Source of the DNA: an uncultured Bacteroides sp. | GTDB lineage: Bacteria; Bacteroidota; Bacteroidia; Bacteroidales; Muribaculaceae | Assembly (NCBI GenBank): GCA_964508865.1 | Contig: CAZDVP010000001.1 | Span: 626-64,625, forward strand | Length of the DNA stretch: 64,000 nucleotides | Direction: 5' to 3' | In this document: piece after piece, positions 3,321 through 61,963 of the stretch | Position numbering within the stretch: position 1 is the first letter of the stretch | Layout of the letters: the number at the start of each line of letters is the position of its first letter | The notes under the pieces: generated by a model | Databases searched by the model: none | What the model saw: the letters and a program-made list of their open reading frames with translations, nothing else | What the model was told of the DNA's origin: nothing | Position numbers and translations under genes: made by a program

Positions 3321-3336
3321 TGTAAATTATTTGATG

Positions 3337-3344
3337 CAAAGTTA
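3337..3344 (-). promoter_or_regulatory. -7 promoter box TAACTTTG for repressor-like gene
   Basis: Matches TAnnTTTG and lies 17 nt upstream of the ATG at 3320. Confidence 0.45.
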
Positions 3345-3352
3345 GCCATAAA

Positions 3353-3369
3353 ATTTGGTAGTTACAAAT
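3353..3369. promoter_or_regulatory. candidate operator ATTTGGTAGTTACAAAT (ATTTG-N7-CAAAT)
   Basis: It sits between the divergent promoters. An exact reverse-complement copy is at 22443..22459 and a copy with one mismatch is at 22007..22023. Confidence 0.5.
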
Positions 3370-3377
3370 ATAAAACA

Positions 3378-4950: not shown

Positions 4951-5724
4951 CTATCGTGTTTCAAAGTCAAACATATTTTCCTGACAGTTGGGGCAATACC
5001 ATTTATAGTCCATCTCAGTCTCGTGAATCTCTGGGAGTAATTCACCGTGACAATGAGGGCAATATTTCTCTTGTCCGATCGGGAGTACCGGATAGAGCCA
5101 GTCTATAGGAACTTCGTCGGGCAGTTCGCCTGTTTGATCGTCGAATAGAATATAGGGGGTAAGGCCAAGCCCGGCTTGACCATCTACACATGGCCCCTCC
5201 CCAATGTATTGAGTAACCTTGAAAATTCCCAATGGTTCATCACCTTCAGCAACGACATAGACTGTTTTATCAGGCTCCAATTCATCAATAAACTGTGCCT
5301 TACGACAACGAATGATATTCTCATCAACAGTGCGGAGATTATCCCAGGCATTAAAATATTCGAGACTTATCCCGGCAGCTGTTAATTCATCCTCGGCCAC
5401 ATCTTCCCAGTCATGATAGCCATAGTCAAGAATTTCAATGAAGTTCTTACCGTCAAAATCAAGAAGTTTGTCCACGAGAATGGTGCCGAAGAAATTAACA
5501 GTCACATTCTCTTCAATAGTGGAAAGCTGGCCGGTGTCTTCATCAGAGTGGCGAATGTCATATCCTATCCATTTTGCCGGAAGAGTTGATTTGTCTATCC
5601 GTCCTTCGATTAGCATTGCAGTTACAATCTCTGTCCTGCTATTGTCAAATCGGGAAGGGATTGTGAGGTCGATAAACTGAGGCTTAAACTCTTTATCATC
5701 TATTAGTTGTTTCCACGTTTTCAT
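4951..5724 (-). CDS. hypothetical protein with C-terminal zinc ribbon
   Basis: The likely start is MKTWKQ at 5724. The C-terminus reads CPHCHGE...YCPNCQ. Confidence 0.55.
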   Translation of the reverse strand: MKTWKQLIDDKEFKPQFIDLTIPSRFDNSRTEIVTAMLIEGRIDKSTLPAKWIGYDIRHSDEDTGQLSTIEENVTVNFFGTILVDKLLDFDGKNFIEILDYGYHDWEDVAEDELTAAGISLEYFNAWDNLRTVDENIIRCRKAQFIDELEPDKTVYVVAEGDEPLGIFKVTQYIGEGPCVDGQAGLGLTPYILFDDQTGELPDEVPIDWLYPVLPIGQEKYCPHCHGELLPEIHETEMDYKWYCPNCQENMFDFETR

Positions 5725-5989
5725 ACTGTCGAACTGTTGGTTTATAAGTCCATTTATAGATTGCGGATTTCTTAGGGGTTGGTACACCATCCCAAATGAG
5801 ATATTCCATAACACGAGGCTTTTCAGATAGAACTATGCCTGGAGTATACTCGTGAGCATAGGTTATCAATTCGTGCAAAGAATCTCCCCAGACTTTGAAC
5901 TCACGGAGTTTATGGTGACTGCCGTCCTCACAATCCAAAGCGGTCATTTGAAGGAATAATTTATTCCATTGAGGTTTTGTATGAATCAT
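5696..5989 (-). CDS. hypothetical protein
   Basis: 97-aa ORF whose start overlaps the upstream stop. Confidence 0.5.
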   Translation of the reverse strand: MIHTKPQWNKLFLQMTALDCEDGSHHKLREFKVWGDSLHELITYAHEYTPGIVLSEKPRVMEYLIWDGVPTPKKSAIYKWTYKPTVRQYENVETTNR

Positions 5990-6288
5990 TTACGTTTCTT
6001 TTTAGGATTTAACTTCCCAGCCTCAAACAGCTGCTGTTTTCTGTTGCGATATTCACGCTTTTTCTGCGCCCAGTATTCAGCAGTACGCTTCGGCTGTTTT
6101 GATCTTGGTTGGGGGTGGAGGATGTTTTGAACGCTACGTTTACTACACCCAAACATCTCAGCCAATTTACGATGGCTAAAACCATCTTCATGCAGGAGCT
6201 TAATTGCTTCTTTCTGTTCTTTCGATAGTTTACATCTCCGGTCCAGTTTGGTTCCTGCGATTTTTATTTTTTCGCTCTTGTAGGGCAT
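5986..6288 (-). CDS. small HTH DNA-binding protein
   Basis: The segment SKEQKEAIKLLHEDGFSHRKLAEMFGCSKRSVQNIL is a resolvase/IS-type HTH pattern. The C-terminus is basic. Confidence 0.5.
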   Translation of the reverse strand: MPYKSEKIKIAGTKLDRRCKLSKEQKEAIKLLHEDGFSHRKLAEMFGCSKRSVQNILHPQPRSKQPKRTAEYWAQKKREYRNRKQQLFEAGKLNPKKKRK

Positions 6289-6365
6289 TTATCTATTTTT
6301 CATACACTAAAAATTAAAGCCGACCTTCTGAATTTGGAGTGATTCTATAAAATGATCAATGTGTT

Positions 6366-6448
6366 GATCCAGAAAGGTGTCTTCTGAAAGAAGACAAATG
6401 TGCCTCCTCCTCTGGAAAGTGGAGGAGGCAATGATTCGTTTCTGGATC
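6366..6448 (+). ncRNA. structured module A1 (three-way junction)
   Basis: P1 is GATCCAGAAA/TTTCTGGATC, P2 is GTCTTC-tgaaa-GAAGAC, and P3 is GCCTCCTCC/GGAGGAGGC. A TCTATAAAATG box lies 14 nt upstream. The strand is inferred from other family members. Confidence 0.4.
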
Positions 6449-6549
6449 TGCTGAACTTAATTCATCAAGTACGGCAAGTTCACTCAAACTGTTTATTATT
6501 TCCCATAGTCAATCAGATACGGAGCGTTTCTATAAATTGTTCATATCAG

Positions 6550-6633
6550 TCCTGCCTACGAAGGATGCTCTGACCACAGAGGTTGGCCGGGAAGGGCCAT
6601 ATCTGTTGGTCCGAGCATCGTGTCTAAGCAGGA
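6550..6633 (+). ncRNA. structured module A2 (long interrupted hairpin)
   Basis: Nested stems TCCTGC/GCAGGA, GATGCTC/GAGCATC, GACC.ACAGA/TCTGT.GGTC and TGGCC/GGCCA. It is preceded by TCTATAAATTGTTCATA. Confidence 0.4.
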
Positions 6634-6716
6634 GCGATTAAATTCATCTGTCTAACTATGTAAATCCGCTCTATTTAGCCATCTTACAAGCCGAGGTGTT
6701 TATCTAATTTGTTCAT

Positions 6717-6808
6717 ATCTGGCGGAATTTGCATTTGTCATGTCATCCGAAAGATGATCTGACAGAGATCAATGTCGGATGACATGGCGAAGATCAAAGC
6801 CGCTGGAT
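6717..6808 (+). ncRNA. structured module A3 (long hairpin)
   Basis: The outer stem ATCTGGCGG/CCGCTGGAT has 2 G.U pairs that work only on the plus strand. The inner 12-bp stem is CATGTCATCCGA/TCGGATGACATG. It is preceded by TAATTTGTTCATA. Confidence 0.45.
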
Positions 6809-6858
6809 TGAATAACGCTTGTCTGATGGCTCACTGACTCACCCAAGTCTTGTTTCAA

Positions 6859-8049
6859 TTATCGACGAGGACGGCGATTCTTATTGATTTCACGCATCAG
6901 TTTTCGTGCCTCGCTCTGCTTGGCCCACTCACGCTTGGTCTCTTCGTAGTTGAAGTTGTTATACTTCAAGAACTCTTTCAGGAGGCCGAGCATTTCGTAA
7001 CCATAGTCGTTCACACCACGATTGACAAGTTCAGTAGCCTTGCGCTCCAGTGCGGCAAGCGACTCTTCCTGCTGAATGAAGTGACGTACATCTCGGTAGG
7101 AGCGGATGCAAGTGTCACCACTTGCGTTGACTTGCAACAGGCAGTTCTCGAAGAGGATTAAGTCCTTGATTGTGTAGTATGCGCCGGCAGCTTTGTATGC
7201 GTTCATAAACGAAGGACACATTTCCGGATAGTAGACGATACCTCGACGAAGTGCACTGAACTTCTGAACCGCAGCATAAAGAGTCTTAGGGAGTTTGGAG
7301 ACGGATATTGTCCGGATTGCAGTTTCAAGCGTTTTGTAGAATGAGAGAAGTTCATCGGTATGGATGCCTTTGCCATTGTTCATCCAATTGCAACGCAGTT
7401 TGACATATTTGCGACCCTTGTGATTACGTTGAGGCATATTCTCGATATACTTCTTCAGACTGCTGAGGAAGTGGTTTGCCATATCAAGAGCGATGGTCTT
7501 GTTGTACCAGCGATTACGGTCTTCGTAACCCTCGGTGTCGTTGTCAGCCGCCATCTTCTGCTGACGCTTCAGGTCGTTGAGAAGAACATCCCAGCTGTAG
7601 TCGTAGCCCTTGCGCTTCAGCATATCGTGAAAACCGACTGTGAGATTGCGACGGCCCTCCTTGTAGAAGAGCATCTGGAGACACTGTGAAGGAATCCAGC
7701 GGCGGACAATGCCCTCGACTTCGATGTAGCCGTCTGCCTCGATTTTATCAATGAGGCCGGCGATGATACGAGCGGCATTAGGAGACGAGAGGGCGGCAGA
7801 GAGTGTCTCCTCAATGCTTGATGCTCCAGAGACAGGAACACGATCGGTGCAGTGAACCGAGGTACAAGCGAGACCGCTGGGTTCAGTGGGAAGCACGACC
7901 GTTCCGAGGCCGCTATCCTTGCCGATAGCCATACCAGACACCGGGTGCTGGTTAGCCGGGATGATGATTTCTGCGCCACAGTTGGAGCAGATTACTTTGG
8001 TTGTAGACTGAGTGTTGTTCATACGATTTGATGATTTCTTTGTTGCCAT
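6859..8049 (-). CDS. hypothetical protein with N-terminal zinc ribbon
   Basis: 396-aa ORF with CSNCGAEIIIP near the N-terminus and a basic C-terminal tail. I recognise no family. Confidence 0.65.
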   Translation of the reverse strand: MATKKSSNRMNNTQSTTKVICSNCGAEIIIPANQHPVSGMAIGKDSGLGTVVLPTEPSGLACTSVHCTDRVPVSGASSIEETLSAALSSPNAARIIAGLIDKIEADGYIEVEGIVRRWIPSQCLQMLFYKEGRRNLTVGFHDMLKRKGYDYSWDVLLNDLKRQQKMAADNDTEGYEDRNRWYNKTIALDMANHFLSSLKKYIENMPQRNHKGRKYVKLRCNWMNNGKGIHTDELLSFYKTLETAIRTISVSKLPKTLYAAVQKFSALRRGIVYYPEMCPSFMNAYKAAGAYYTIKDLILFENCLLQVNASGDTCIRSYRDVRHFIQQEESLAALERKATELVNRGVNDYGYEMLGLLKEFLKYNNFNYEETKREWAKQSEARKLMREINKNRRPRR

Positions 8050-8091
8050 TTCTGTAATTATTATGAGTTTGTAAATTGATTGTTTGTTTTT

Positions 8092-8544
8092 TTAGAACCA
8101 GTCCTTTCTGAGGATGAAGGATTTGTCAGTTCCCTGATAGAACCAGTCCTTTGCGAAGAGTTCTTCCGGATTGAACGATCCGTTCAGAAGTGAAAGGAGA
8201 ATGAAGACCTCCAGTTCGGCCTGAGCGACATCTCTTGACTTGGGGTTGTTGAGGGCATCGTGGCCGCACTCCTTTATGAGTTCCGACACTGACAATGCTT
8301 TGAATTTTGCAGTTCGCTCTTTGGCCATTGATGATTTAGTCGGTCGGCTGTACTTGTATGTGTCATACAGATTTTCAACCTCATCCAGCCAAACATCTAA
8401 ATCCGGATGCACAGGGATTCCATACGGTGTTTTGGTTAGATCCACCACCTTTCCGTCGATTATTAGACTTCGTTTCTTGAAGTCTACCCGAAAGCGAGAA
8501 CCTTTGCTCACTTTCTCAATTACATTTTCGTATATTGTGCTCAT
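8092..8544 (-). CDS. hypothetical protein
   Basis: 150-aa ORF with no recognisable motif. Confidence 0.6.
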   Translation of the reverse strand: MSTIYENVIEKVSKGSRFRVDFKKRSLIIDGKVVDLTKTPYGIPVHPDLDVWLDEVENLYDTYKYSRPTKSSMAKERTAKFKALSVSELIKECGHDALNNPKSRDVAQAELEVFILLSLLNGSFNPEELFAKDWFYQGTDKSFILRKDWF

Positions 8545-8604
8545 TGTTAAGAAGTTTTCAAATTAGTTGCTCATCCCGTCGTCACATAAATTTAATTCTT
8601 CCAT

Positions 8605-8699
8605 GATATACCGGCTGAGGTCAGGTCCCGAAGTGTGCAGGACTCGAAAGTCATTCGAGTCGAAACACTTCGTGTCCCTGAGTTGAAAGCCGGTAGATC
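8605..8699 (+). ncRNA. structured module B1 (long interrupted hairpin)
   Basis: Stems GAT.TACCGGCT/AGCCGGTA.ATC, TCAGG/CCTGA, CGAAGTGT/ACACTTCG and GACTCGAA-agtca-TTCGAGTC. A CATAAA box lies 14 nt upstream. Confidence 0.4.
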
Positions 8700-8785
8700 T
8701 AAATAGTCGGGCCTTGCAACTGTTTAGGCTGTGCTACCGTTTGGACTTTCGCACTGGATTGTACGTCACTGTAAATTTGCCAATT

Positions 8786-8874
8786 CATACTGTAGGAGCA
8801 AGCTCCGGCGGCTGAAGGCTTCCAGGAAGTAAGTCCTGGAAGGCGGGGCCGAGGAGCTGGATTGCAACAGTATG
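8786..8874 (+). ncRNA. structured module B2 (long interrupted hairpin)
   Basis: Stems CATACTGT/ACAGTATG, AGCTCC/GGAGCT and GGCTTCCAGGA/TCCTGGAAGGC. It is preceded by TAAATTTG (an exact TAnnTTTG match) and TTCATA. Confidence 0.4.
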
Positions 8875-8957
8875 ACTAAAGTTTCCAGTCTTGATAGCCC
8901 TCTTCGTATGTTCTTGATTTCTCATAGTTTGTAACGCATTTATATAATCTTGTAAAT

Positions 8958-9014
8958 CTATTACCTGTAAGACCACGGTAATATCTCCCACTACCTGTGT
9001 ATTACAGGTAATAG
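8958..9014 (+). ncRNA. structured module B3
   Basis: An 11-bp stem CTATTACCTGT/ACAGGTAATAG, or alternatively two sub-hairpins. It is preceded by TATATAATCTTGT. Confidence 0.3.
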
Positions 9015-9110
9015 TAAAAAGGGAAACTCTTTGAAATCAAGTGCTGCATTGCATAACATTGATTGTTAATGGTGTCACAAACATGGCGCATTGATATAAT
9101 CTGTTCATAG

Positions 9111-9188
9111 GATCCAGTTTAAGAACTTCTGAAGGGCTGGTAGTCATCCAGCCATTCAGAAGTATCTCAGTACACGGCGAACTGGATC
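9111..9188 (+). ncRNA. structured module B4 (paralog of A1)
   Basis: Stems GATCCAGTT/AACTGGATC, ACTTCTGAA/TTCAGAAGT and GGCTGG-tagtcat-CCAGCC. It shares GATCCAG-N8-CTTCTGAA with A1 and is preceded by GATATAATCTGTTCATA. Confidence 0.45.
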
Positions 9189-9290
9189 TTAAATTGAAGT
9201 TTGCCCTCACCATTGTTCATGCGCTTGATAAAGATGGTTCAATTTACGGACTTGGCACGTTGCTGAAATCATCTCATGTGGCCACGAGAA

Positions 9291-9354
9291 GTCTGAATCG
9301 ACGGGACTTGGAACGCCGACAGCAATCGGCGTGGAACGTCCCGTCGATTTGGAT
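9291..9354 (+). ncRNA. structured module B5 (could double as RT terminator)
   Basis: A 12-bp stem AATCGACGGGAC/GTCCCGTCGATT and a 7-bp stem ACGCCGA/TCGGCGT. The outer extension GTCTG/TTGGA(T) needs G.U pairs that work only on the plus strand. Confidence 0.35.
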
Positions 9355-9401
9355 TATTCTCGTGTACCTAAATGTGTCCGTCTCATCTGAACCTGTCGTG
9401 C

Positions 9402-10721
9402 TTAAATATCTCTGACAATTGAATCGTAAAGGTCACGGCCATACAAGAGATTGTTTCTCATACACCCAAGAGAATAAAAGCCTTCGATACGTTCTCCAGT
9501 CTTTTCTCTTAAAGTGCGAATCTTTCGACCCTTACCACGAGCAATGCAACCCTCTTTGCTGGTCTTTACCCAACCGAGACCGCCGATGTCGTTCATGCCT
9601 ACTGATTTCCCAACCTTCACTGCCCTCAGACAGTCAAGTACAAATCCGTTCAATGTGTCAATGTCAGACTTTACATTGATAGTCTTCAGAACACCGGTAG
9701 CCCAGGAGTATTGTCCGTCTCCATAATAGAGCCAAGACTGAACTGAGTGCAAAGCAGTCTGGAATTTGATACCAGTTCGTATTTTTGAGATAGTACGTGA
9801 TGTAACCTCCTTGACGAATGATTTTATTCGATTACTGCTCAGACTGATATTGGCTCCCTTGATTGAGAAGCCGAGGAACTTGAACCAATGGTCATTGTCT
9901 ATGTACTCGACCTTTTTGGGATTGAGTCTCATATCCATTTCCTCCAGTGTTGAAACCAAGACCTCCATTGCTTTCTCATATTCCTTTCCGATGAATAAAA
10001 TGTCATCTGAATACCGGACATAATACCCTCCAGCCTTGCCTCCGTAATTATCGTTAATGACCTTATCGAGGTGGTAAAGAATCGTATCGGCCAACCAGGA
10101 GGCAACAGCGCACCCTTGTTTAAGGCTCTGATAGTGTGTCACCTCTTCTTTAAGTTCGCTGTCATAGAAGAGGTCGAGGTGGTAATACTCCCGGACAATA
10201 TCAATTATTAGGGATTTCCCATATACTTTTTCAATAGCGTCAAACTTAGAGTCAATGTAGCGAATAGGAACCGAGTCAAAATATTTACTCAGGTCGGCTT
10301 TCCATCCGATTATATTATGAGAGACCCCACTTAACTTGTCAATCATCTGACTGGCGTGGGTCACGATTTTGGCACACCCAATTCCTTTTTGATAAGATGT
10401 ACACTGAGGGTGAATCCAACCTCCAGTGGAAGCGGTGAGATCAAAAAGTAGATCGTTGACGATAGAGAGAAACACCCTGTCTCTATCGTTGTTGATGAAT
10501 ACAGTGCGAAACTCGCCCGGAACATCTTTGGGGATTTTGGCGGTGTGAGGACGTTCAATATGATAATTGCCGGACACAATCTCTGCCAGCAAATTCTTAC
10601 GCCCATTGGGAGACATAAGGTCTCTAAGCACCGCCTGACTGATTCCTTTGAAAGCCCCTTTGTTGAGAGCATCCTCCCAACGTTTCTTTTCAAAGAACAT
10701 TTCTAATATCTTGTCTTCCAT
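9402..10721 (-). CDS. reverse transcriptase, non-DGR type (class unassigned)
   Basis: 439 aa with RT motifs IPKDVPGEFRTVF, KADLSKYFDSV, LKQGCAVASWLAD, YVRYSDDILFIG (YxDD), LNPKK and FKFLGFSI. It lacks the DGR-type [LIV]GxxxSQ signature. Confidence 0.85.
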   Translation of the reverse strand: MEDKILEMFFEKKRWEDALNKGAFKGISQAVLRDLMSPNGRKNLLAEIVSGNYHIERPHTAKIPKDVPGEFRTVFINNDRDRVFLSIVNDLLFDLTASTGGWIHPQCTSYQKGIGCAKIVTHASQMIDKLSGVSHNIIGWKADLSKYFDSVPIRYIDSKFDAIEKVYGKSLIIDIVREYYHLDLFYDSELKEEVTHYQSLKQGCAVASWLADTILYHLDKVINDNYGGKAGGYYVRYSDDILFIGKEYEKAMEVLVSTLEEMDMRLNPKKVEYIDNDHWFKFLGFSIKGANISLSSNRIKSFVKEVTSRTISKIRTGIKFQTALHSVQSWLYYGDGQYSWATGVLKTINVKSDIDTLNGFVLDCLRAVKVGKSVGMNDIGGLGWVKTSKEGCIARGKGRKIRTLREKTGERIEGFYSLGCMRNNLLYGRDLYDSIVRDI

Positions 10722-10722
10722 A

Positions 10723-10944
10723 TTAGCCTAATACTAAATAATTATTGATTGCGTCTTCTTCTGATACTCCGAATGGAAGTGGCAACATACCTTCATCTTC
10801 TCCCATTTTTGTGAAAAGTTGAAATAATTCGTGAGTACCATTTGCTTCATCGTCAGAAGTAATGAGGATTTTCTTGTCTCCATAACCGACTTTTACAAGA
10901 CGAGCCGATTCCTCAGCAAGTTGCTTAATCGTGATTGCTTCCAT
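10723..10944 (-). CDS. small acidic hypothetical protein
   Basis: 73 aa. Its stop lies 1 nt from the RT start, so translational coupling is likely. It is not Avd-like, being acidic rather than basic. Confidence 0.55.
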   Translation of the reverse strand: MEAITIKQLAEESARLVKVGYGDKKILITSDDEANGTHELFQLFTKMGEDEGMLPLPFGVSEEDAINNYLVLG

Positions 10945-11031: not shown

Positions 11032-11715
11032 TTAAGCCTCACACGCTACAGAGGGACGAACCGTATAGTTGGTATACTTGTTGAAGTAGTTGCCCGTGAT
11101 ACCAGTACCGAAATACACGTACCAGGAGTCGTAGCTACTGTACTCGCTACTCGACCAATGGTTCCCAGCTTGGAGTTCGTCACCACCAGCAGCAACTAAT
11201 GCCTTGTTGACTTCATTGATGAAGAGGAGGATGAGGTGCAGCTGGGCCACACTGGGGATGTACTCGTTGTCCTTCAAACCAATCTTGGGATTGAGATAAG
11301 GACGAAGACGAGCGGTGTTGCCTTCACCATCCCAGTCTGCCATAGCAGCGTTGAATGATTTACGGTATGCTTCCGGGGTTTCGGAACACTCTTTGTCCTC
11401 GTCGATGAGAGCCACATCGTTGCCGTTTGCAGCATCATGGAGGGCAACTGTGGCCACATGGCCCATAGCCTTGACTGCGACACCTACGATTGCCTCCTTT
11501 TTGACGAGACCGATGTTCTCAACTGGCATCAGAGTCTTGTCGGTCATCACATAGTAGATGCCATCACTGGTGGGCTTTACGTTGATGTTCATTGTAGAGG
11601 TGGGTTTGTCGCTTTCAAGCACAAAGTCACACACCTCTTTTGCCTTGTTTACGTCGAAACCGACGGCACCGACTACTGCGGCGCGAAACTCTTGGATTTC
11701 TGTAAGATTTCCCAT
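11032..11715 (-). CDS. DGR target protein 2 (DUF1566/C-type-lectin-like variable C-terminus)
   Basis: 227 aa with C-terminus GNHWSSSEYSSYDSWYVYFGTGITGNYFNKYTNYTVRPSVACEA. This stretch is encoded by VR2, which matches the TR at 62075..62201. Confidence 0.85.
   Translation of the reverse strand: MGNLTEIQEFRAAVVGAVGFDVNKAKEVCDFVLESDKPTSTMNINVKPTSDGIYYVMTDKTLMPVENIGLVKKEAIVGVAVKAMGHVATVALHDAANGNDVALIDEDKECSETPEAYRKSFNAAMADWDGEGNTARLRPYLNPKIGLKDNEYIPSVAQLHLILLFINEVNKALVAAGGDELQAGNHWSSSEYSSYDSWYVYFGTGITGNYFNKYTNYTVRPSVACEA
11044..11170 (-). repeat. DGR variable repeat VR2
   Basis: Hand alignment of 127 nt against TR 62075..62201 gives 14 differences, and every one is at an adenine of the TR. Confidence 0.9.
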
Positions 11716-11731: not shown

Positions 11732-13378
11732 TTATGCGGTTAATTGAAGTTGGTTAGCGATATATTCCATCTCAGAGTAAGCGATGGAGTGGCACCCTGC
11801 GGTGAGGATGTCATTGCGATAAGAAGTGATCGTCCAGTGATCGTCAACTGCACGGCAAATTTCACGAGTGAACTCGGCAGCGTTTTCATGCCATCTCTTG
11901 ACAAGAGACCATAGACGTTTACATTCTTCGATAGTGATTTTGATGCCCTTAGAGGTTTCTACGATAGCACCCTTGATGCGGAGTAAAACATTGCCTCCAT
12001 AGAAGACACTGGGGCTTCCTGTGTTGTAGAGTTTGAAACCTTCGTGATACAACTGACGGACACCTTCCGGGGTCTTTTTCAGTTCGTCGATGTATTCTCG
12101 CTTAGATGCTTCAAGTTCTTCGTAACGTCTCCGTTCTTCTTCGACCTCTCTCCAGTGCTGATCCCAATGAGCACGAGCTTCTTCATGCTGGCGTGTCTCT
12201 TCCTGGAAGCCTTCCAGAACCTCTTGACGCTTGTTGATGACCCACTGACGCTGCTGTTCGAGCGGAAGAGAACAATATGTCTGATACTCTTCATAAGTCA
12301 GACGTTTTTCTCTGTGCCATGAGCAGAAGTGGAAAACGGTGCCGTTGAAGTTGAAGGAAGTTGGCAGATTGTTACGGAATGGACTGAGAGAATCATGTGG
12401 CATCCAGCCTCTCATTCCCAGATGTTTCTCCAGCCGCTCTTTCGCTTTCTCACAAGCAACTTGACGAGCTGCTACTAAGTTAGCGGTGTAGGCTGATTTA
12501 ACATTGGTCTGGCGAAGATTGTACAGCCATTGTATGTAATCACCCTTCTTTTTGTGCTGAGTGATAGATTTCTTGTTGATTGGGTTGTCGGTCACAACTG
12601 GAGAAACCATTCCATGAACAGTCGGCCTTACCATTTCTCCCCTCCAGCCTGGACCCTTAACAAATACCAATGAGCGGAGGCGGCGAGTCTTCTCTGCGTT
12701 TTTCAGAGGCTCGATGCGTTTTTGATAATCGGCCCATGTACCCTCTCCGTTAACCATGTCAACGATAGCCTCAATCGGATCGTTGTCAAGCATCATCTGG
12801 AGGAATTTGCGAACTCGCTTATCTACCTGCTTGTAGGTGCAGTTAATACTCCGCATATATGGAATATGCGTCCTGAAGTCATCGAACTTCATTCGGAGAA
12901 GTTTCTTGACAGTCATGCACCCAGTGACGTTAAACCAGCGGACCATTTCCTCATAACCCTTACGAGAGAAAGGGTGACTGAGAGCATTGCAATCGGGAAC
13001 GAGTAGACAATGACTGTATTCCTCCATCAGGTATCTCATTCCGAACTCTATCAAAGCCTTATTGCGTTGTTCTTTAGTCTGTCCGTGATAGAAGGAGATA
13101 ATACGATACGAACCTCTTTCGTGGCCTTTGAAATTGAATATCTCCTTAGCTATGTCGTTGGGAATCGCGCTTCTGACCCAACCTTGATGGCCAGAGGTCG
13201 TATTGCTGTAACTTGCAGTGTCCAGCAGAAATAGTACCTTGCCGTTGATCTCAATTCGCTGTCCGATGCAGGTGCTGTATGAATATATACAGCCATCATC
13301 GTGACTCATGTGAGACGAGTTGTGCGCCTTGTCGAGATTGTGCGCCCAAGCATGGGCAACCGATGAATAATCACTCAT
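11732..13378 (-). CDS. hypothetical protein
   Basis: 548-aa ORF. The N-terminus reads AHAWAHN...SYSTCIG...SNTTSGHQGW and the centre is a charged coiled-coil. I cannot name a family with confidence. Confidence 0.65.
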   Translation of the reverse strand: MSDYSSVAHAWAHNLDKAHNSSHMSHDDGCIYSYSTCIGQRIEINGKVLFLLDTASYSNTTSGHQGWVRSAIPNDIAKEIFNFKGHERGSYRIISFYHGQTKEQRNKALIEFGMRYLMEEYSHCLLVPDCNALSHPFSRKGYEEMVRWFNVTGCMTVKKLLRMKFDDFRTHIPYMRSINCTYKQVDKRVRKFLQMMLDNDPIEAIVDMVNGEGTWADYQKRIEPLKNAEKTRRLRSLVFVKGPGWRGEMVRPTVHGMVSPVVTDNPINKKSITQHKKKGDYIQWLYNLRQTNVKSAYTANLVAARQVACEKAKERLEKHLGMRGWMPHDSLSPFRNNLPTSFNFNGTVFHFCSWHREKRLTYEEYQTYCSLPLEQQRQWVINKRQEVLEGFQEETRQHEEARAHWDQHWREVEEERRRYEELEASKREYIDELKKTPEGVRQLYHEGFKLYNTGSPSVFYGGNVLLRIKGAIVETSKGIKITIEECKRLWSLVKRWHENAAEFTREICRAVDDHWTITSYRNDILTAGCHSIAYSEMEYIANQLQLTA

Positions 13379-21985: not shown

Positions 21986-21990
21986 CGATG

Positions 21991-21998
21991 CAAAGTTA
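21991..21998 (-). promoter_or_regulatory. -7 promoter box TAACTTTG (CTAACTTTGC)
   Basis: It has the same 10-mer as the other early promoters and points into the ORF-free tract. Confidence 0.45.
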
Positions 21999-22006
21999 GG
22001 CACAAT

Positions 22007-22023
22007 ATTTGAAACTACCAAAT
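22007..22023. promoter_or_regulatory. operator copy (ATTTGAAACTACCAAAT)
   Basis: It has one mismatch to the reverse complement of 3353..3369 and the same flanking ATAAAAC. Confidence 0.45.
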
Positions 22024-22099
22024 ATAAAACGTTAAGAAATGTTAACGAGATTTTCAAAATAGGTCTATCTAATTGATAATCAGTTAGAAAAAATTTTTG

Positions 22100-24029: not shown

Positions 24030-26018
24030 TTATTTGAATTGGGAGATCGTATCGCTGGCTAAGGAATCGTCATAGCCATGAGCGACATTCCAACGATGAA
24101 CTTTTCGAGCAGAGAAAAGGTTCTTAGTCATCTTCACATCTGAGCCTTGAATCTGACGTTCCGTTTGCGATAAGGTAGCAAGAAATTCTTCGACTGGTAT
24201 CTCTTGCTCGTTGCACCACATCACTACCGAGCCTTTGTAGATATATCCTGGGAGAGAGCGGCCTTCTACTCGCTGTTGTTCGGTATTGGTGAAATACTCC
24301 GGTCGATACTCTGAGTCAAATCCAACGAAGGTCTGGTAAAATCTACGGATAATCGTTTCGATGGGAGTCAACCTCTCTTCGGCTCCATTCTCCATGAGAT
24401 TTTTAGTAAACGCTCTGTCAAGTCGGGTCTCGGCTGCAATCTCTGAACGAGTCTTGGGAACTGGAGTGTTCTCAATAACCGTAGCCTCGATGTTCCGAAA
24501 GCGTTTCAAAGAGACCTTTAACCCACGCTTGCCATCGACCTCAGCCTCTTCCCAATCGAAGATGAAATGAGGTTGGAGATCTTCGATGGATGTGAAGCCA
24601 AGTTTGTAGGTGCCGTATGAATCCTCATACACCCCCTTCTCAACGGCACCGGCCATATCGTCATAGATTTGCTCGGCCAGTTTCAAAAGGTCTTCTACTG
24701 GAAGTACAGCATCAATCATTTTGAGGTCGTTGATAGAGTCGCTTTCAATCGGATCTCCATTCTCGTCATAATCCCTCGTATCGTAGTTCTCGGCATAGAG
24801 ATCCCAGCAACCCCACCAAAACAGATTGATGAATAATTTAACTGGAGAATCGTATGTGACAGCCGGATCAAGAGATGCAGTTATTTTCTGTGCTTCCGAT
24901 TCAGTGAAGTAAGGCTTGGTCTTATAGGGATTGTTGATTTTAGGTTTAACCTGGGAAATACGAGTGGAACGTTTTCCAAAGGGTTCTTCACCATTCAATT
25001 CAACAATTCCCAGAGAATCCTCAAATTCTTCAGAATCCGAAGAAGGCTGGAAGCCTTCCACATTGGATAGGGGTTTAAGGGGGAAGTCCTCTTCCCCCTT
25101 TTCAACAGGCGAAGCTGGTTTATTATTTATTTTATTATATATATTATTACTGTTGTGCAGAAATGCACAGCTTTTTGGCCCTTCGGTGTGCATTTCTGCA
25201 CACCCCCCTGTGTAAAAATGCACAGCCAGTTGAGCCAAAGTGCAGAGCAAATTCTGGTCAATTTTGGTGTTTTCTGAGAAACTCCCAGTGTAAAATGACT
25301 CTTTCATGGATTCGTACTCATCGTTGTGCATTTCTGCACAGGGAGTGGTAGAAAATACCATATCAAAAGTGGTTTTGTCTGTGCATTTTTGCACAATCTC
25401 TGCGAACTGCTGAAGAAATCTGTGCATTTTTACACCGGTGTGTGTGCTTTTACACATAGTTGTGTATTTCTGCACACCGTTGTGTATTTCTGCACAACTT
25501 TCGCTTTCTGAATCGTTTTGCTGTGCATTTTTACACACCTCTGTGTATTTTTGCACAGGGTTGAGCATAATTGACGATCCTTGTAGGCCGGCAAGTTCTT
25601 TTCGACACCCTTGCTCTATGGCTCCTTCCAGTGCTGAGATTCCTTCTTTTTTGAATCGCTGGGTGAAAGAGTTCTGTTCTGTGTAATCAAGGGACTCGAA
25701 GTGTTTGACAAGACTGACAAATTCATCGCCATTAAAGATGATGGCATTGGGCCGCGTCTTAATTAGTCCAAGACCTTCCAGTTTCGCAAGAGAAGCGGTA
25801 ACTGTTCGCCGGTTGAGACCGAGAATTTCACTTATACGTTTTTGGCTTACAAATATTGTTTGCTCCAGTAATGAAGTCTTCATTTGCTGACGATACTCAT
25901 CCGCCAGATAGATGAGTATGATTTTGTCCGGAGCGGATTCTGCCAACTGAAAAATCGCTTTGTAGTATAATCCGTACCGAACTGTTTTTGGTTCAGGATT
26001 TGACATAGCGCATTTCAA
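24030..26018 (-). CDS. wHTH replication-initiator-like protein with internal repeat region
   Basis: 662 aa. The N-terminus is winged-helix-like (VSQKRISEILGLNRRTVTASLAKLEGLGLIK). The central CAEMHN/VQKYT peptide repeats are encoded by the palindrome array. Confidence 0.6.
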   Translation of the reverse strand: MKCAMSNPEPKTVRYGLYYKAIFQLAESAPDKIILIYLADEYRQQMKTSLLEQTIFVSQKRISEILGLNRRTVTASLAKLEGLGLIKTRPNAIIFNGDEFVSLVKHFESLDYTEQNSFTQRFKKEGISALEGAIEQGCRKELAGLQGSSIMLNPVQKYTEVCKNAQQNDSESESCAEIHNGVQKYTTMCKSTHTGVKMHRFLQQFAEIVQKCTDKTTFDMVFSTTPCAEMHNDEYESMKESFYTGSFSENTKIDQNLLCTLAQLAVHFYTGGCAEMHTEGPKSCAFLHNSNNIYNKINNKPASPVEKGEEDFPLKPLSNVEGFQPSSDSEEFEDSLGIVELNGEEPFGKRSTRISQVKPKINNPYKTKPYFTESEAQKITASLDPAVTYDSPVKLFINLFWWGCWDLYAENYDTRDYDENGDPIESDSINDLKMIDAVLPVEDLLKLAEQIYDDMAGAVEKGVYEDSYGTYKLGFTSIEDLQPHFIFDWEEAEVDGKRGLKVSLKRFRNIEATVIENTPVPKTRSEIAAETRLDRAFTKNLMENGAEERLTPIETIIRRFYQTFVGFDSEYRPEYFTNTEQQRVEGRSLPGYIYKGSVVMWCNEQEIPVEEFLATLSQTERQIQGSDVKMTKNLFSARKVHRWNVAHGYDDSLASDTISQFK
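25154..25557. repeat. array of 11 copies of 16-bp palindrome TGTG[CT]A-N4-T[GA]CACA
   Basis: Copies start at 25154, 25187, 25209, 25325, 25380, 25421, 25441, 25461, 25481, 25522 and 25542, all inside the CDS. Confidence 0.75.
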
Positions 26019-54755: not shown

Positions 54756-57700
54756 ATGGCTAAAAAAGCAATTGCAGTAAAAGGTTACATCCCTGACATC
54801 AGCACTCCCTGGGAGTGGATAGATGAGAATGGGCAATTGAAAGCCTATGATGGAGAGTCTGTAGAGAACTTGCTACGGCGTGTTATTTCTGACTTGCAGA
54901 CCACCAAAGTAGGTTATTTCGTCATTCCTCAAAATAAGGAAACTGACGGATATTATCACTTATGGGGATTTGCCAGTCAAAGCGATTACAGCGATTATCT
55001 TACTGATCCTGTTAGTAACGCTTCGCTACGTCTGCTTAACACTGCAATTCCGATTTTGGAGGAGCAGGGAGGAGTCAGCAATATCGTTACTCTGACTCGA
55101 AACTCAGCGGCAAGTATCGTTACCAGCAAAGCAGAGGCAAGCGTAGAGGTATCATATCTGTGGCAACAGTACAATCCTATTACTAAGGAAACTACAGACC
55201 AGGATGAAGATGCCACTATCATTGTATCTTGCCGAACACAAAATGCAAATGGCACATGGGGAGCGTGGGATTCCAGTAAGGAGTTTACCGTCTCTATCCA
55301 ATCTGGACAGACTAAGACCATCGACCTAAGTAAATTGCTGACTTCTGACGCAACTTATCAGATTCGTTTGGTTGCAACCGGTGAAACAAGCGAGATTTCT
55401 GCCAGCCCTGTAACTGTAAGCATTGTGTATTCAAACGTGGCGGCAAAGTATGAAGGCCAGATTGCAACCGCTTATCAAGGCAGTAGCATCCAGCTTCCTT
55501 TCCGTATTTCAGGTAGCGTACAAAAGCAGCTTAGAATCAAAATTGGTAACTATACCAAAAACTTCACACTTGGCACTACGACTTATACCGATAATACGTA
55601 TGGTGCTACTTTGACTCAGGCTGAATTTGGACTAACTCGTGGGGCTGTCAAGGCTGAAGCATGGATCGCGTTTGGTGAAGGATATGCTGCTGAAACGGAG
55701 CATCAAGAGTTTCAGTTTATTTACCTCCCTGAGAATGACACCATCACTACTCCTATTTTGGCTGTCACGGACATCATGGAGGAATTTCAGAACTGGACCC
55801 GTGCAACGATTTTCAGATATGCCATATACAATCCGCAGTCTGACGAAACATTCTTACGCATAACCCTTCAGGATCGCACAACAGGTCAAATCTACATCCA
55901 AAAGGATATAACCTGTATGAATGGTGAAAGTTATGAGTTTGACGAGAACTTCGGCATGGAGTATGAAGGAGATGAGCAGCCTACTACTATTCAGGCCCAG
56001 GCTACCTTTGTCAACGCCTCCGGCCTGACTTATGGTAACAATATTAACTTCACTGTTGACAATTCAGAGAACTTTGCTCCAACAAAAGGCGCAAATTTGA
56101 TTCTTTCGCCTGAAAAACATAGTCTTGTTATTGATGGCGAGGATTACGACGTTGCTGATCTTATCACTGACAAAGATGATACCAACAGCGGATGGAAGAC
56201 AAATACTGAGTTTGATTCAACCGGAGCGCAAGTCAATGTACCTGTCCTCAGTATTGCTGCCGGCAACAAACTGACGATTCCGTATGAACTTTTCAATTCA
56301 AATACCGGCCACAACAACAATGGTGTCGAAGGTTCGATTACGATAGAATTTGACATAAAAGTAAAAAATATCGTAAGTAACGCTCCAATCATTGACGCTT
56401 CAGCACCCTTTGACAAGGCGTACACCGGATTGAAGTTCTACCCGACAAGAGCAGTGTGTCTTAGCCAGAATAATAATTCAGAGGATATTTGCGATGCGAC
56501 TTTCTGTGAAGAGACACGTGAGCACATAGCGATTAACATTATCCGCAATCTTCGTGGTGAAGGATTGAATCTGGTTCGTTTCTACATCAATGGTAAATCG
56601 AACCGTTCATACATTTACACTGATGAGGATAATTTCATACCTATCGGTGCAAATGGCGCACAAAATCTTGTTATTGGCTCTGATGATGCCGATATTGATA
56701 TTTATGGATTGCGTGTTTATAAAGATCAGCAGCTTGGCTCCGTTCAGATTCAGAATGACTATATGGCTGGTATGCCGACCATTGAAGATAAGAAAAAGTT
56801 CAAACGTTTCAATTCAATCTACAACGGTACGGAAATCAGTTACGACCAGTGTAATGCGATGGGTCTTAACACGATTCTTCGTAAAATTCCACAGGGCGGT
56901 CATTATCCTTCTCGTGAAAATCAGGACAAACAGAAGAACGTTACCATAGATGTTCGTATCTTCAAAGAACGTGGTAATGCTGAAAGTCTTGACCGTAAGC
57001 ATAGTGGCACATTTGTAGGTATGACCGATAAAGGTCAGGGAACCAGCGCGAAAGGTTACTATTGGTGGAATATCTCTGATGGCTTTGAAGATGACGTAGA
57101 GATAGCTGCCGACGCATACGACCCCTCAGATCCTACCCATTACACAGCTGATGGTAAATATTTCAAAAAGATTTCGTACTTCAATTCATTAGACGGTATC
57201 AGTCAGGTTTATGCAAGCAAGTATGAAATCGAGGATGGCCGAGGGGGAATAACTAAACTGGTTGGTAAGTGTAATTACGCTTCTCCCATGCAGAGCCATA
57301 AATTAGGAGGCGTTTGGGCTTACGATGAACTTTGGCAACTTCTTGTTAACGATGGTTCCGGCGGTCGTACCGTGCTTCAAGATACTCATGCCGCTTGTTA
57401 TGAACTGCCCTTCCTTTGCTTTTATCAAATAGGCAATGGTACTCCTATATTCTGTGGATTCCAGACTTGGGGTAGCGGCAAAGGCGATAAAAAGACCTTT
57501 GGCTACGACAAGAAGAAATCCCCAGGATATATGTGTGTGTCCGGAGCGGATAATGGTGCCGTTGCTGCTCTATTCCAAATGCCTTGGTTGGTAAGCAAAA
57601 ACACTCAGGGCGCATGGAGCGGCAATGTCTACGCTAAGAGCGTGACAATCAATACCGGTGACGTTAAGAATGGATATTGTTATAAGAGCGGTGTCAGTGA

Positions 57701-61366: not shown

Positions 61367-61392
61367 GGCGAGTTGCCTTTTGGCAACTCGCC
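61367..61392 (+). promoter_or_regulatory. GC-rich hairpin 3' of VR1 (DGR target-recognition-type element and/or terminator)
   Basis: An 11-bp stem ggcgagttgcc/ggcaactcgcc with loop TTTT, 26 nt after the end of VR1. Confidence 0.6.
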
Positions 61393-61417
61393 TATAACCC
61401 TTAAAATAAATTTAATA

Positions 61418-61963
61418 ATGTTAAATAAATCAAACGAAAAGTCTCCTACGGAGAAGGCTTTAGAGTCTCACGCATCTATAACCGGAATATTTGAAGAGGT
61501 AGAATTTCTTCCCTCTGAAGATACAGTTGTGCTTACACAGGCAGAAATTGACGCTGCCAAAAAGAATAAACGAGATATGCGTAAAAAGGCTAAAACCTTT
61601 GTAAATGCCCCAATATATCGAACATTCCACAACGCTACATCTCTACTTATGCAAATCATCACACTCATGCCTAAAAAGACGGTCAAACTGAGTGATGTAA
61701 TGCTGATAAAATTGAATGATGCGATTCAATGGACTGCATCGGCTTATGAACAAAAAGATCCGATTCATAAACATTATTCGCTCTGTGAGGCTATATCTTT
61801 AATGTACAGCATTAAGGTGTACGCAAATTCAGCTTCAAGTCTAAATCTCATCGGCAAGAGCAAGTCTACTCAACTGAGCAAAGCGATTGACGCTATTTTA
61901 CGCCAACTTGTAGCATGGCGAGGCTCATTGATAGATAAGGGCGATAATGCTTGCGATCAATAA
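61418..61963 (+). CDS. avd: Avd-like DGR accessory protein with N-terminal extension
   Basis: The helical basic C-terminal half (LMPKKTVKLSDV...AIDAILRQLVAWRGS) fits the four-helix-bundle Avd pattern. It sits between the target gene and the TR/RT. The ATG is at 61418; the track's TTG at 61373 lies inside the hairpin. Confidence 0.6.
   Translation: MLNKSNEKSPTEKALESHASITGIFEEVEFLPSEDTVVLTQAEIDAAKKNKRDMRKKAKTFVNAPIYRTFHNATSLLMQIITLMPKKTVKLSDVMLIKLNDAIQWTASAYEQKDPIHKHYSLCEAISLMYSIKVYANSASSLNLIGKSKSTQLSKAIDAILRQLVAWRGSLIDKGDNACDQ

Follow-up and report, generated by a model that had tools for sequence, protein, structure and literature searches.

A UG27 reverse transcriptase system with repeated structured RNA modules adjoining a DGR target gene in a gut Bacteroidales phage

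A 64,000-nucleotide stretch from an uncultured Bacteroides sp. (assembly GCA_964508865.1, contig CAZDVP010000001.1, positions 626 to 64,625; referred to here as the window) carries phage genes, including one for a 2,200-aa DGR-targeted fibre-like protein, and a canonical DGR at 54.7-63.4 kb with its reverse transcriptase (RT), Avd and template repeat (TR). A second RT gene lies 0.3 kb downstream of a gene bearing a further DGR variable region (VR2), on the same strand, which raises the question of whether this RT serves the DGR or belongs to a system of its own. The original prediction described it as an orphan RT in a DGR-like cassette position, wired next to VR2, and knew of no phage carrying a DGR together with a second RT. 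Here, the orphan RT in a DGR cassette dissolves into a textbook case of a family that was described in 2022: we assign with high confidence the identity and anatomy of a complete UG27 system at positions 6483-10721 on the minus strand, and the explanation that we strongly favor overall is that this system, comprising an RT, an ncRNA array and the proteins p150 and p396, adjoins the DGR target by chance.

The second reverse transcriptase and its upstream neighbors

The features of the RT and of the DGR elements considered here are as follows.

9402..10721, minus strand: RT gene, 439 aa; UG27-group RT, Class 2 UG/Abi, YSDD intact
10723..10944, minus strand: acidic 73-aa ORF; strain-variable insert, a neighbor and not a UG27 component
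11032..11715, minus strand: 227-aa DUF1566/Lcl_C-type protein with VR2; remote DGR target, not a UG27 component
11038-11170, minus strand: VR2, 88% identical to TR
61209-61344: VR1, a TR-like copy
62070-62205: TR, the canonical DGR template repeat

The predicted layout of a 439-aa RT, a 73-aa ORF and a VR2-bearing target was confirmed, as was the description of an RT with a full set of catalytic motifs and no DGR signature. The motifs seen are GWKADLSKYFDSV, LKQGCAVASWLAD, YVRYSDDILFIG and FKFLGFSI, with the YSDD aspartates invariant across 25 homologues (alignment A1); homologues of this RT number more than 4,700. Motif B reads QGCAVASWLAD (pattern QGxxxSxxLAD), which does not match the DGR-clade motif [LIV]GxxxSQ, and the window's DGR RT scores only 32 bits against the second RT in BLASTP. 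Pfam RVT_1 matches the 439-aa protein with E = 8.6e-19. The best family model is PADLOC RT_UG27 (E = 5.2e-174, 577 bits), which aligns residues 1-438 with profile positions 1-419 of 420; the runner-up is UG26 (88 bits, E = 1e-25), and other PADLOC Class 2 models are far weaker (UG17, 1e-17; Drt9, 8e-14; Drt2, 4e-13). With the group II intron model TIGR04416 the RT reaches 72 bits (cut-off 300), with the NCBIfam St85 family retron RT model NF038233 44 bits (1.2e-11; cut-off 235), and with the NCBIfam Drt2 model NF041746 46 bits (cut-off 390). PADLOC retron RT models all score 1e-9 or worse (RT_Ec107-like, 2.9e-9), and an Rfam search for group II introns gave none at the gathering threshold or at E ≤ 1. 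This family placement, run as a profile comparison, locates the RT in UG27 and outside the retron and group II models; judged by its sequence, the second RT is a full-length and typical member of an already known family.

The 73-aa ORF was expected to be acidic and unlike Avd, and it has a pI of 4.3 versus 9.9 for the Avd-like DGR accessory protein; it is not a basic accessory of the Avd type and has no match in Pfam, PHROG, PADLOC or phage databases. It occurs only in the window and in loci L162-164, whose RTs are 95% identical to that of the window, and is absent from L165 (RT 91% identical), L167 (90%) and L166 (85%). Of 202 related loci, 29 (14%) have a gene of the VR2-target family upstream of, and on the same strand as, the UG27 RT, at distances from 90 nt to 3.6 kb, and no UG27 locus in this survey of 13-kb loci has a DGR RT within 6 kb of the UG27 RT. 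The claim that the RT is wired next to VR2 does not survive these comparisons.

As predicted, there is no TR near the UG27 RT, since TR, VR1 and VR2 are the sole TR-like copies in the 64 kb. Differences between TR and VR2 fall at TR adenines in 15 of 16 cases, and because of this adenine specificity the canonical DGR RT and Avd, using the TR at 62070-62205, are predicted to diversify VR2 in trans, without a part for the UG27 RT. Remote targets are an established feature of DGRs. The UG27 system is, on sequence grounds, independent of the DGR, and the position of its RT adjoining the VR2 target is best read as conserved gene order.

The layout of the window recurs in BS-TP1, a cultured, temperate Bacteroides phage which has both a DGR and a UG27 RT (gp79), the latter 53% identical to the UG27 RT of the window. 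In BS-TP1 the DUF1566 protein gp76 carries a 112-nt VR, 90% TR-like, about 0.8 kb upstream of gp79. Together with the UG27 RTs reported in more than 1,400 gut-phage genomes (Mestre et al., 2022; PMC9226505), BS-TP1 contradicts the view that no known phage carries a DGR and a second RT. The UG27 RT of BS-TP1 is mis-annotated as a tail protein, and the phage's second DGR target had gone unnoticed.

Partner proteins and gene order across UG27 loci

UG27 was defined by Mestre et al. (2022, Nucleic Acids Res; PMC9226505) as an RT with an associated protein of cluster 346, one of cluster 337 and a predicted ncRNA located between the RT and an associated gene; such systems were found in 1,447 dereplicated gut-phage genomes, and a single UG27 ncRNA with three long stem-loops was proposed (PMC9226505). 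Two genes downstream of the window's RT encode the corresponding proteins.

8092..8544, minus strand: p150, UG27-associated protein, cluster 346 of Mestre et al.
6859..8049, minus strand: p396, UG27-associated protein, cluster 337; N-terminal CxxC motif, helical core

Alignment of p150 with PADLOC RTas346 (1.6e-31) covers positions 2-144 of 147 in the profile, and that of p396 with RTas337 (1.2e-60) positions 2-316 of 316, such that all three proteins of the window fit their family models over the full length. The window further resembles the published description in having an ncRNA between the RT and the cluster-346 gene, in belonging to a gut Bacteroidales phage and in the lack of a known domain in the partners; the RT group, clusters 346 and 337, the intergenic ncRNA and carriage by a gut phage are all present, and no difference affects membership. 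Three details may go beyond the published description: an ncRNA organized as tandem ~190-nt paralogues, one more of which follows the cluster-337 gene; the frequent fusion of cluster 346 to the RT C-terminus; and a gene order that can be permuted.

AF2 models of p150 (pLDDT 91) and of the p396 core (residues 120-390, pLDDT mostly > 85) were used in structure searches: the p150 model has no match in the PDB and a sole match in BFVD, one uncharacterized phage homologue, while the p396 core has no PDB match (best E 0.5). PDB sequence-profile searches with both proteins were likewise empty. Because neither p150 nor p396 has a fold or domain recognizable in these sequence-profile and structure searches, their roles are guesses. 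In other phages the C-terminal ~100 aa of p150 is fused to the C-terminus of the RT; hhalign aligns p150 with residues 465-551 of one such RT (P0054) with a probability of 86% and E = 4.7e-6, and this RT::p150 fusion argues for a physical partnership of the two proteins.

Synteny was analyzed in 192 loci that extend 4.5 kb or more beyond the RT on its downstream side. The RT, p150 and p396 genes cluster jointly in about 190 of these. The order RT-p150-p396 is found in 183, with an RT::p150 fusion in 16 of them, and the order is permuted in seven; one locus has p150 downstream without p396 there, and one has neither partner. Overall p150 is found in 184 loci, and p396 lies downstream of the RT in 183 and upstream in six of the seven permuted loci (two truncated copies). 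The clustering of the three genes is thus near-obligatory, including in the fusions and permuted orders. In this survey downstream p150 and p396 are nearly constant, but the VR2 target and the 73-aa ORF upstream are not; the supposed orphan is accompanied by two conserved genes for partner proteins and by an ncRNA of its own, and its functional neighbors lie downstream, not upstream as a DGR-like cassette position would have it.

UG27 relatives come from IMG/VR gut viral contigs, pig and human gut metagenomes, Bacteroidales genomes and phage BS-TP1, the IMG/VR matches being obtained with an alignment-based query (a query with a single RT gave none). Many of the loci sit in chromosomes of Segatella, Alistipes, Bacteroides and Phocaeicola and, being inside bacterial chromosomes, are probably prophages. 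In the window the genes around the UG27 system are of early type, including an HTH/sigma-r4 protein and an LPD28 polyvalent-protein domain.

Repeated RNA structure downstream of the RT

A highly structured, ORF-free stretch was predicted to follow the RT, and this holds. The region folds with -293 kcal/mol compared with -215 +/- 9 for shuffles (z = -8.6) and comprises a set of related modules, with a further copy beyond p396.

8545..9401, minus strand: UG27 ncRNA region, 857 nt, ORF-free; tandem ~140-190-nt related modules in RT sense
9213..9402, minus strand: module M1, whose first base is the last base of the RT stop codon; model R1 25.4 bits, E = 2.8e-6, full model (filters off)
9073..9209, minus strand: possible, weak module M2; R1 6.4 bits, E = 0.26, not significant alone
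8723..8910, minus strand: module M3, best conserved and the seed of R1; covariation and pairing
8567..8717, minus strand: module M4; R1 19.5 bits, E = 9.6e-5; contains an 85-nt hairpin and closely precedes the p150 start
6483..6672, minus strand: module M5; R1 30.7 bits, E = 1.1e-7, 34 of 38 model pairs formed

Nucleotide identity of the region is 87-78% and confined to close relatives; its core reaches distant loci by nhmmer, and of 55 RNAalifold pairs, 41 show compensatory changes. No Rfam family matches the region; the covariance model published for the UG27 ncRNA of Mestre et al. is absent from Rfam, and the modules are defined here by our own model, R1. M3 is closed by stem P1 and has P2 (CAUACUGU/ACAGUAUG) as its inner stem; its other elements are a long hairpin and a 3' hairpin, the latter with AGCACA in the loop. 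Over 77 distinct matches to the M3 model, 89.3% of cells are paired versus 31-39% in slid controls, and the covariation score is 0.70 versus 0.06. Compensatory pairs also occur in M4 (alignment A5, columns 206-369). The M2 area contains a weak nhmmer repeat (9148-9075), and a fragment at 8932-9018 has an R1 score that is not significant alone. M5 occupies the 570-nt gap separating p396 from the next gene. The window has at least three modules between the RT and p150 and one after p396.

Searches with the covariance model gave 161 matches in 131 loci, 159 of them on the RT strand. All 159 lie in the gap between RT and p150, in that between RT::p150 and p396, or in the sequence immediately following p396 or the RT, and none is upstream of the RT or inside a gene; structured ncRNA between the RT and an associated gene is represented by model matches in 99 of the 131 loci. 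Copies after p396, like M5, account for 23 of the 159 (L162, L166, L083, L058, L104, L235, L239, L227 and others). Two or more modules are present in at least 46 loci, counts per locus being lower bounds with the seed-limited R1. The post-p396 copies, too divergent to be aligned without a model, gave no consensus with MAFFT/RNAalifold, and the covariance-model alignment was used. In the modules, G-U cells outnumber A-C cells by 38 to 13 in a MAFFT alignment and by 98 to 63 in a model-fitted one, a strand test which favors RNA only mildly. The modules also contain conserved asymmetric single-stranded motifs (UUA-AG, the AGCACA loop) and multi-stem junctions with compensatory changes. The RNA structure that these loci carry, in RT sense, covaries and recurs within each locus.

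A search of the window for sequences complementary to the ncRNA gave only chance-level matches of 12-16 nt, and scans for sigma-70 promoters and terminators gave no clear signal. A conserved TAATTTG just upstream of p150 was considered as a Bacteroidetes -7 box (TAnnTTTG) and rejected, being one base short in the window.

Proposed activity and alternative roles

In the mechanism we propose, transcription would run through the RT gene into the modules, and the RT complexed with p150 would bind them, with part of the RNA serving as template, and possibly primer, for cDNA or ssDNA; p396 may act downstream of this as an effector or product-handling factor, and the product would serve the phage in infection or lysogeny through counter-defence or superinfection exclusion. 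Synthesis templated by ncRNA is described for Class 2 DRTs (PMC13174585). Because other Class 2 UG/Abi RTs (DRT2, DRT9, DRT10, Drt3a) polymerize ncRNA-templated products, the UG27 RT with p150 most likely reverse transcribes its own ncRNA; as a statement about the enzyme, ncRNA-templated cDNA synthesis has, by this analogy, about an even chance of being correct. Our confidence in any specific biological role is low. Of the roles offered by the original prediction, a DRT-like element using nearby structured RNAs was essentially correct.

Like DRT2 (UG2), DRT9 (UG28), DRT10 (UG17) and Drt3a (UG3), UG27 has a Class 2 single-domain RT and an adjacent structured ncRNA, and the analogy suggests that ncRNA-templated DNA synthesis is likely common to them. 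In contrast to the single upstream ncRNA copy of those systems, the UG27 ncRNA is downstream and repeated, and UG27 differs further in its two dedicated accessory proteins, its carriage by phages and its lack of association with defence islands. The combination of an RT, an ncRNA whose closing stem encloses a long hairpin, and accessory or effector proteins also recalls retrons, and the general logic may be similar. However, the UG27 RNA lies downstream of the RT in several copies and has no Rfam msr match.

The proximity of the RT to VR2 could mean that it is an auxiliary or alternative DGR RT acting locally at VR2, for example by making cDNA or by helping retrohoming. The RT is phage-encoded, as in DGRs, and adjoins a gene with a DGR variable region; this arrangement is kept in BS-TP1 despite the divergence of the two UG27 RTs, and the target family recurs upstream, on the same strand, in the 29 loci noted above. 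Yet in 86% of UG27 loci the 4.5-6 kb upstream contain no such gene, and where one is present its distance varies over the range given, with unrelated ORFs between. The RT belongs to another clade with another motif and only a weak BLASTP score to the DGR RT, lacks a TR or Avd, and has its own conserved ncRNA and partner proteins; the adenine-specific differences between TR and VR2 are already explained by the canonical DGR in trans, and a layout common to two related ~100-kb temperate Bacteroides phages is expected from descent. We consider this reading barely credible. A different objection concerns the RNA itself, since the 0.86-kb region might be a regulatory element of DNA or transcript (a replication origin, packaging site, or terminator/antiterminator array) that accompanies the RT operon and is no RT substrate. 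Its long hairpins are near-palindromic and would also fold as DNA, the model also recognizes their reverse complements, G-U cells exceed A-C cells only modestly, and CRISPR spacers against the region reflect DNA targeting (Mestre et al., 2022; PMC9226505). Against this, the modules stay with the RT and its partners however the gene order is rearranged: where it is permuted they come after the RT, and where the fusion is present they come after RT::p150 or p396. Their single-stranded motifs and compensated junctions are typical of an RNA bound by protein, unlike those of an origin or terminator, and a scan for terminator-like sequences found no excess in the region. Such a regulatory element is very unlikely.

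If the modules are RT substrates, synthesis could proceed as in DRT2, by rolling-circle reverse transcription around a stem-closed loop to give concatemeric cDNA with a stop-free 'Neo'-type gene. UG2 and UG27 are both of Class 2 (PMC9226505), and the module stem (P2 or P1) closes a 90-150-nt loop, a topology similar to that of the DRT2 template. Stop-free circular frames, however, occur at the shuffle rate (P2, 23 versus 21.7 expected; P1b, 10 versus 10.8; P1a, 9 versus 9.9), so that there is no Neo-like stop-free repeat as in DRT2; this test covers coding concatemers, and rolling-circle synthesis of a non-coding repeat is compatible with its result. With a Drt2 model score far below the cut-off and an ncRNA that is multi-copy and downstream of the RT, unlike that of DRT2, we regard a DRT2-like coding concatemer as highly improbable. 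With respect to function, UG27 may instead be a phage- or prophage-borne anti-phage defence, acting by DRT-like abortive infection or superinfection exclusion to protect the lysogen or infected cell from competing phages, and not serving the phage's own replication or counter-defence. The characterized Class 2 UG/Abi members (DRT2, DRT9, DRT10, Drt3a) are defence systems, PADLOC places all three proteins under DRT, many loci are in bacterial chromosomes, probably as prophages, and BS-TP1 is temperate. But UG27 was not enriched in defence islands in the study of Mestre et al., who predicted a role outside defence (PMC9226505), and near-universal presence in several large phage families, including crAss-like phages, fits a core phage function better (PMC9226505); the early-type gene context in the window suits counter-defence equally well. 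We view a defence role as a tentative possibility, on balance unlikely. The evidence as a whole thus leaves us with the reading that we favor, a complete UG27 system beside a DGR target that it adjoins by chance.

A more speculative extension, to which we attach rather little probability, is that the UG27 ncRNA is not one RNA: each locus would hold 2-6 paralogous modules of ~190 nt, which flank the accessory genes and have distinct long hairpins, and the system would work as a multi-template ssDNA/cDNA factory. If each module is indeed a separate substrate, one RT::p150 enzyme would make several products, and such a multi-template organization would be unlike any characterized retron or DRT. 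As a weaker addition, the lineage of the window phage and BS-TP1 may keep this factory beside a remote DGR target for a functional reason.

UG27 is among the most abundant phage-encoded RT systems of the human and animal gut, and the present analysis gives it a sharper anatomy in the form of the module array, the RT-p150 fusion and the permuted gene orders. Bacteroides salyersiae BG8 and BS-TP1 are a cultured host and temperate phage pair carrying both UG27 and a DGR.

Identity of the second reverse transcriptase

The minus-strand order of a 227-aa ORF, a 73-aa ORF, a 439-aa reverse transcriptase (RT) and an ORF-free stretch was described correctly in the original prediction, and the RT motifs quoted there are all present in the 439-aa protein. 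The region comprises:

11032–11715, minus strand: 227-aa ORF, 5′ of the 73-aa ORF
11038–11170, minus strand: variable repeat VR2, at the C-terminus of the 227-aa protein
10723–10944, minus strand: 73-aa ORF, acidic as noted (pI 4.3)
9402–10721, minus strand: 439-aa ORF, RT
8545–9401, minus strand: structured stretch, 857 nt, without any credible ORF
8092–8544, minus strand: p150 (150 aa), full-length match to PADLOC RTas346 (1.6e-31)
6859–8049, minus strand: p396 (396 aa), full-length match to PADLOC RTas337 (1.2e-60)

The 439-aa protein matches Pfam RVT_1 (8.6e-19), and its catalytic aspartates are invariant across 25 homologues (alignment A1). Placement against reference families assigns it over its whole length to UG27 (PADLOC, E 5.2e-174); the runner-up, UG26, reaches only 88 bits, and the retron, group II intron, DRT2, DRT3 and DRT9 models are far weaker, lying under their curated cut-offs where such exist. 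It scores just 32 bits against the window's own diversity-generating retroelement (DGR) RT (BLASTP), in agreement with the proposal that it is not a DGR RT. Mestre et al. (2022; PMC9226505) describe UG27 as a Class 2 UG/Abi RT without defence-island enrichment. They found it in predicted phage genomes from the gut (1,447 after dereplication; Bacteroidetes and Firmicutes hosts), accompanied by two functionally uncharacterised proteins (clusters 346 and 337), and predicted an ncRNA in the space that separates the RT from its associated gene. The PADLOC RTas346 and RTas337 models derive from these clusters and are matched by the two ORFs after the structured region. The window element is thus complete and typical of a family that has been described before.

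Partner proteins of the UG27 RT

The synteny survey drew on 248 related loci, found in viral contigs, metagenomes and bacterial genomes or through exact-protein look-ups; counts refer to the 192 with at least 4.5 kb 3′ of the RT. The order RT, p150, p396 is found in 183/192; in 167 of these 183 the RT and p150 are separated by a gap (median 1,378 nt), and in the other 16 the RT is fused to the C-terminal ~100 residues of p150, a fusion backed by hhalign (probability 86%, E 4.7e-6) and also seen in A1. In seven of the 192 loci the gene order is permuted (p150-p396-RT or p396-RT-p150), and two of these seven keep only a truncated p396, 5′ of the RT; both partners are absent in one locus. Since they are kept together through fusion and permutation, the three genes, judged by synteny, are one functional unit, and the RT is not the orphan it was taken for. 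In p396 an N-terminal CxxC is nearly invariant, and the structure model confidently predicts a helical core with no known relative.

The survey thus places the conserved partners downstream, not among the upstream genes. The 73-aa ORF is limited to the window and contigs with a 95% identical RT; none of the libraries searched contains a homologue. Relatives with RT identities of 91%, 90% and 85% lack it, and in them the 227-aa gene abuts the RT directly. The 227-aa family lies 5′ of the RT in 29/202 loci, at spacings of 90 nt to 3.6 kb, and is absent in a relative with a 72% identical RT. The suggested cassette of target, small ORF and RT therefore does not hold.

Many rumen and animal-gut contigs encode RTs of 530–577 aa, the added length coming from the fused C-terminal part (~100 aa) of the cluster-346 protein (loci L005, L018, L093, L119, L122, L128, L130, L134, L136, L137 and L141; e.g. 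L005 5998–7659), and in these loci the ncRNA modules are relocated to before and after the cluster-337 gene. ENA OURN01000007 (164,547 bp; L158/L160), where the cluster-337 gene is truncated and upstream of the RT, carries the same UG27 locus twice, ~82 kb apart, which points to a circular or terminally redundant phage genome of ~82 kb assembled as a concatemer.

Structured RNA modules

The stretch 8545–9401 is highly structured, as had been noted, folding far better than shuffled copies (z = −8.6). BLASTN similarity is confined to close relatives (87–78%); a profile built from these detects a ~350-nt core (window 8556–8903) in distant loci, and where RT and p150 are fused this core follows p396 and not the RT. 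An RNAalifold consensus of 12 sequences has 55 predicted pairs, 41 with compensatory changes; this result rests on a MAFFT alignment and is free of model-fitting bias. From it we built R1, a covariance model of a single ~190-nt module (39 pairs) consisting of a closing stem P1, an inner stem P2 (CAUACUGU/ACAGUAUG) and a long hairpin, with the most conserved motif, UUA-AG--A-G, at the junction and an AGCACA loop in the 3′ hairpin.

Searching 131 loci with R1 gave 161 matches: 159 in RT orientation and two on the opposite strand, where palindromic hairpins are echoed in reverse complement. The 159 lie between RT and p150 (125), at most 1.6 kb after p396 (23), after the RT in permuted loci (8) or between RT::p150 and p396 (3); none in the 131 loci lies 5′ of the RT or within a gene. 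At least one module occurs in 99/131 loci, and two to four in 46/131. Pairing, assessed on 77 distinct matches, reaches 89.3% of cells, versus 31–39% with partners slid, and the covariation score is 0.70 versus 0.06, figures flattered by the model-fitted alignment. With filters off, R1 finds in the window:

9213–9402, minus strand: module M1, E 3e-6
9073–9209, minus strand: M2, doubtful, E 0.26
8932–9018, minus strand: module fragment, E 0.04
8723–8910, minus strand: M3, seed of R1
8567–8717, minus strand: M4, E 1e-4
6483–6672, minus strand: M5, E 1e-7

M5, with 34/38 model pairs formed, lies in a second ORF-free gap (570 nt, 6289–6858, minus strand) between p396 and an HTH gene, and many related loci have equivalent copies after p396. 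Rfam gave no match to the structured region, even at E ≤ 1. A 16-nt exact reverse-complement match between the M3 hairpin (8814–8829) and an upstream 548-aa gene (12199–12214; short-word BLAST, E 0.011) is probably due to chance.

The window holds other repeats. A 48-nt unit rich in TGTGCA/TACAC (family D2, 69–77% identity), with three copies within 150 nt (25420–25568, plus strand), may be iteron-like or regulatory. A 44-nt element (GATGCAAAGTTAGC...AAATATAAAAC) has three dispersed copies (1437–1480, 3333–3376 and 21987–22030; 73–82% identity). The Bacteroidetes −7 promoter consensus is TAnnTTTG; the reverse complement of the element contains TATATTTG, which fits it, and the element may thus be a repeated minus-strand phage promoter.

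Relation to the DGR and possible role

The same window carries a canonical DGR:

54756–61358: DGR target, 2,200 aa, with VR1 at 61209–61344
61373–61963: Avd-like ORF, basic
62070–62205: template repeat (TR)
within 61947–63431: DGR RT

No TR-like sequence beyond TR, VR1 and VR2 occurs in the 64 kb, which extends the earlier remark that the second RT has none nearby, and no DGR RT lies within ~6 kb of the UG27 RT in 249 loci, window included. The DGR RT reading frame runs 5′ through the TR (61947–62280, plus strand), and the translated TR weakly matches Lcl_C/DUF1566 (E 8e-4), confirming, at the level of domain prediction, DUF1566-type C-lectin-like domains for both variable regions.

The original prediction recognised no other phage that pairs a DGR with a second RT beside a remote VR; the same arrangement exists in BS-TP1, a cultured temperate Bacteroides phage (PQ571274.1; PMC12694917), whose DGR RT and UG27 RT are 59% and 53% identical to those of the window. 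In the BS-TP1 region L081 (PQ571274.1 72351–87610) the relevant genes are:

7001–8263: gp79, UG27 RT, annotated ‘tail protein’
5514–6185: gp76, DUF1566 protein, ~0.8 kb 5′ of gp79

After gp79 come a 1.35-kb gap with a module, gp80 (p150), gp81 and gp82 (p396). Because a 112-nt stretch at the 3′ end of gp76 matches the phage's TR with 90% identity (BS-TP1 region L249, 9080–9211), gp76 is a predicted second, remote DGR target; the BS-TP1 publication names gp27 as sole target and does not mention this second one (PMC12694917).

Two phages thus share a remote target beside the UG27 system. We read the adjacency as gene order inherited in one lineage, since the association is missing from 86% of loci, the spacing of target and RT is variable and, with TR–VR2 differences falling at TR adenines in 15/16 cases, the canonical DGR acting in trans accounts in full for VR2 on sequence grounds. 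A functional link between the target and the UG27 system is very improbable.

Among the roles originally offered, a DRT-like element using nearby structured RNAs stands as to the RT and its own ncRNA modules, the mechanism being drawn by analogy. The RT would bind the module RNAs and copy part of them into DNA, probably in a complex with p150, since their repeated fusion speaks for direct contact. Every characterised Class 2 UG/Abi RT works on an ncRNA of its own, and a 2026 paper (PMC13174585) describes the products that Class 2 DRTs polymerise as templated by ncRNA. For p396 the product would be target or partner. A DRT2-type stop-free concatemer mechanism was tested and rejected.

Two genes 3′ of the system are early or counter-defence-type:

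5986–6288, minus strand: HTH protein (Sigma70_r4_2/HTH_23), 100 aa
4951–5790, minus strand: LPD28 (large polyvalent protein associated) domain protein, 279 aa

The former recurs at the same position in relatives that range from close ones to L001 and L168 (RT 68–72% identical), the latter in close relatives only (RT 85–95% identical). Many UG27 copies lie within bacterial chromosomes, as probable prophages. Given these neighbours, the probable prophages and the addiction or anti-defence function suggested for UG27 (Mestre et al., 2022; PMC9226505), counter-defence and superinfection exclusion are both plausible. The tandem modules with their post-p396 copy, the fusion of RT to the cluster-346 protein and the permuted orders may add to the published description of UG27.
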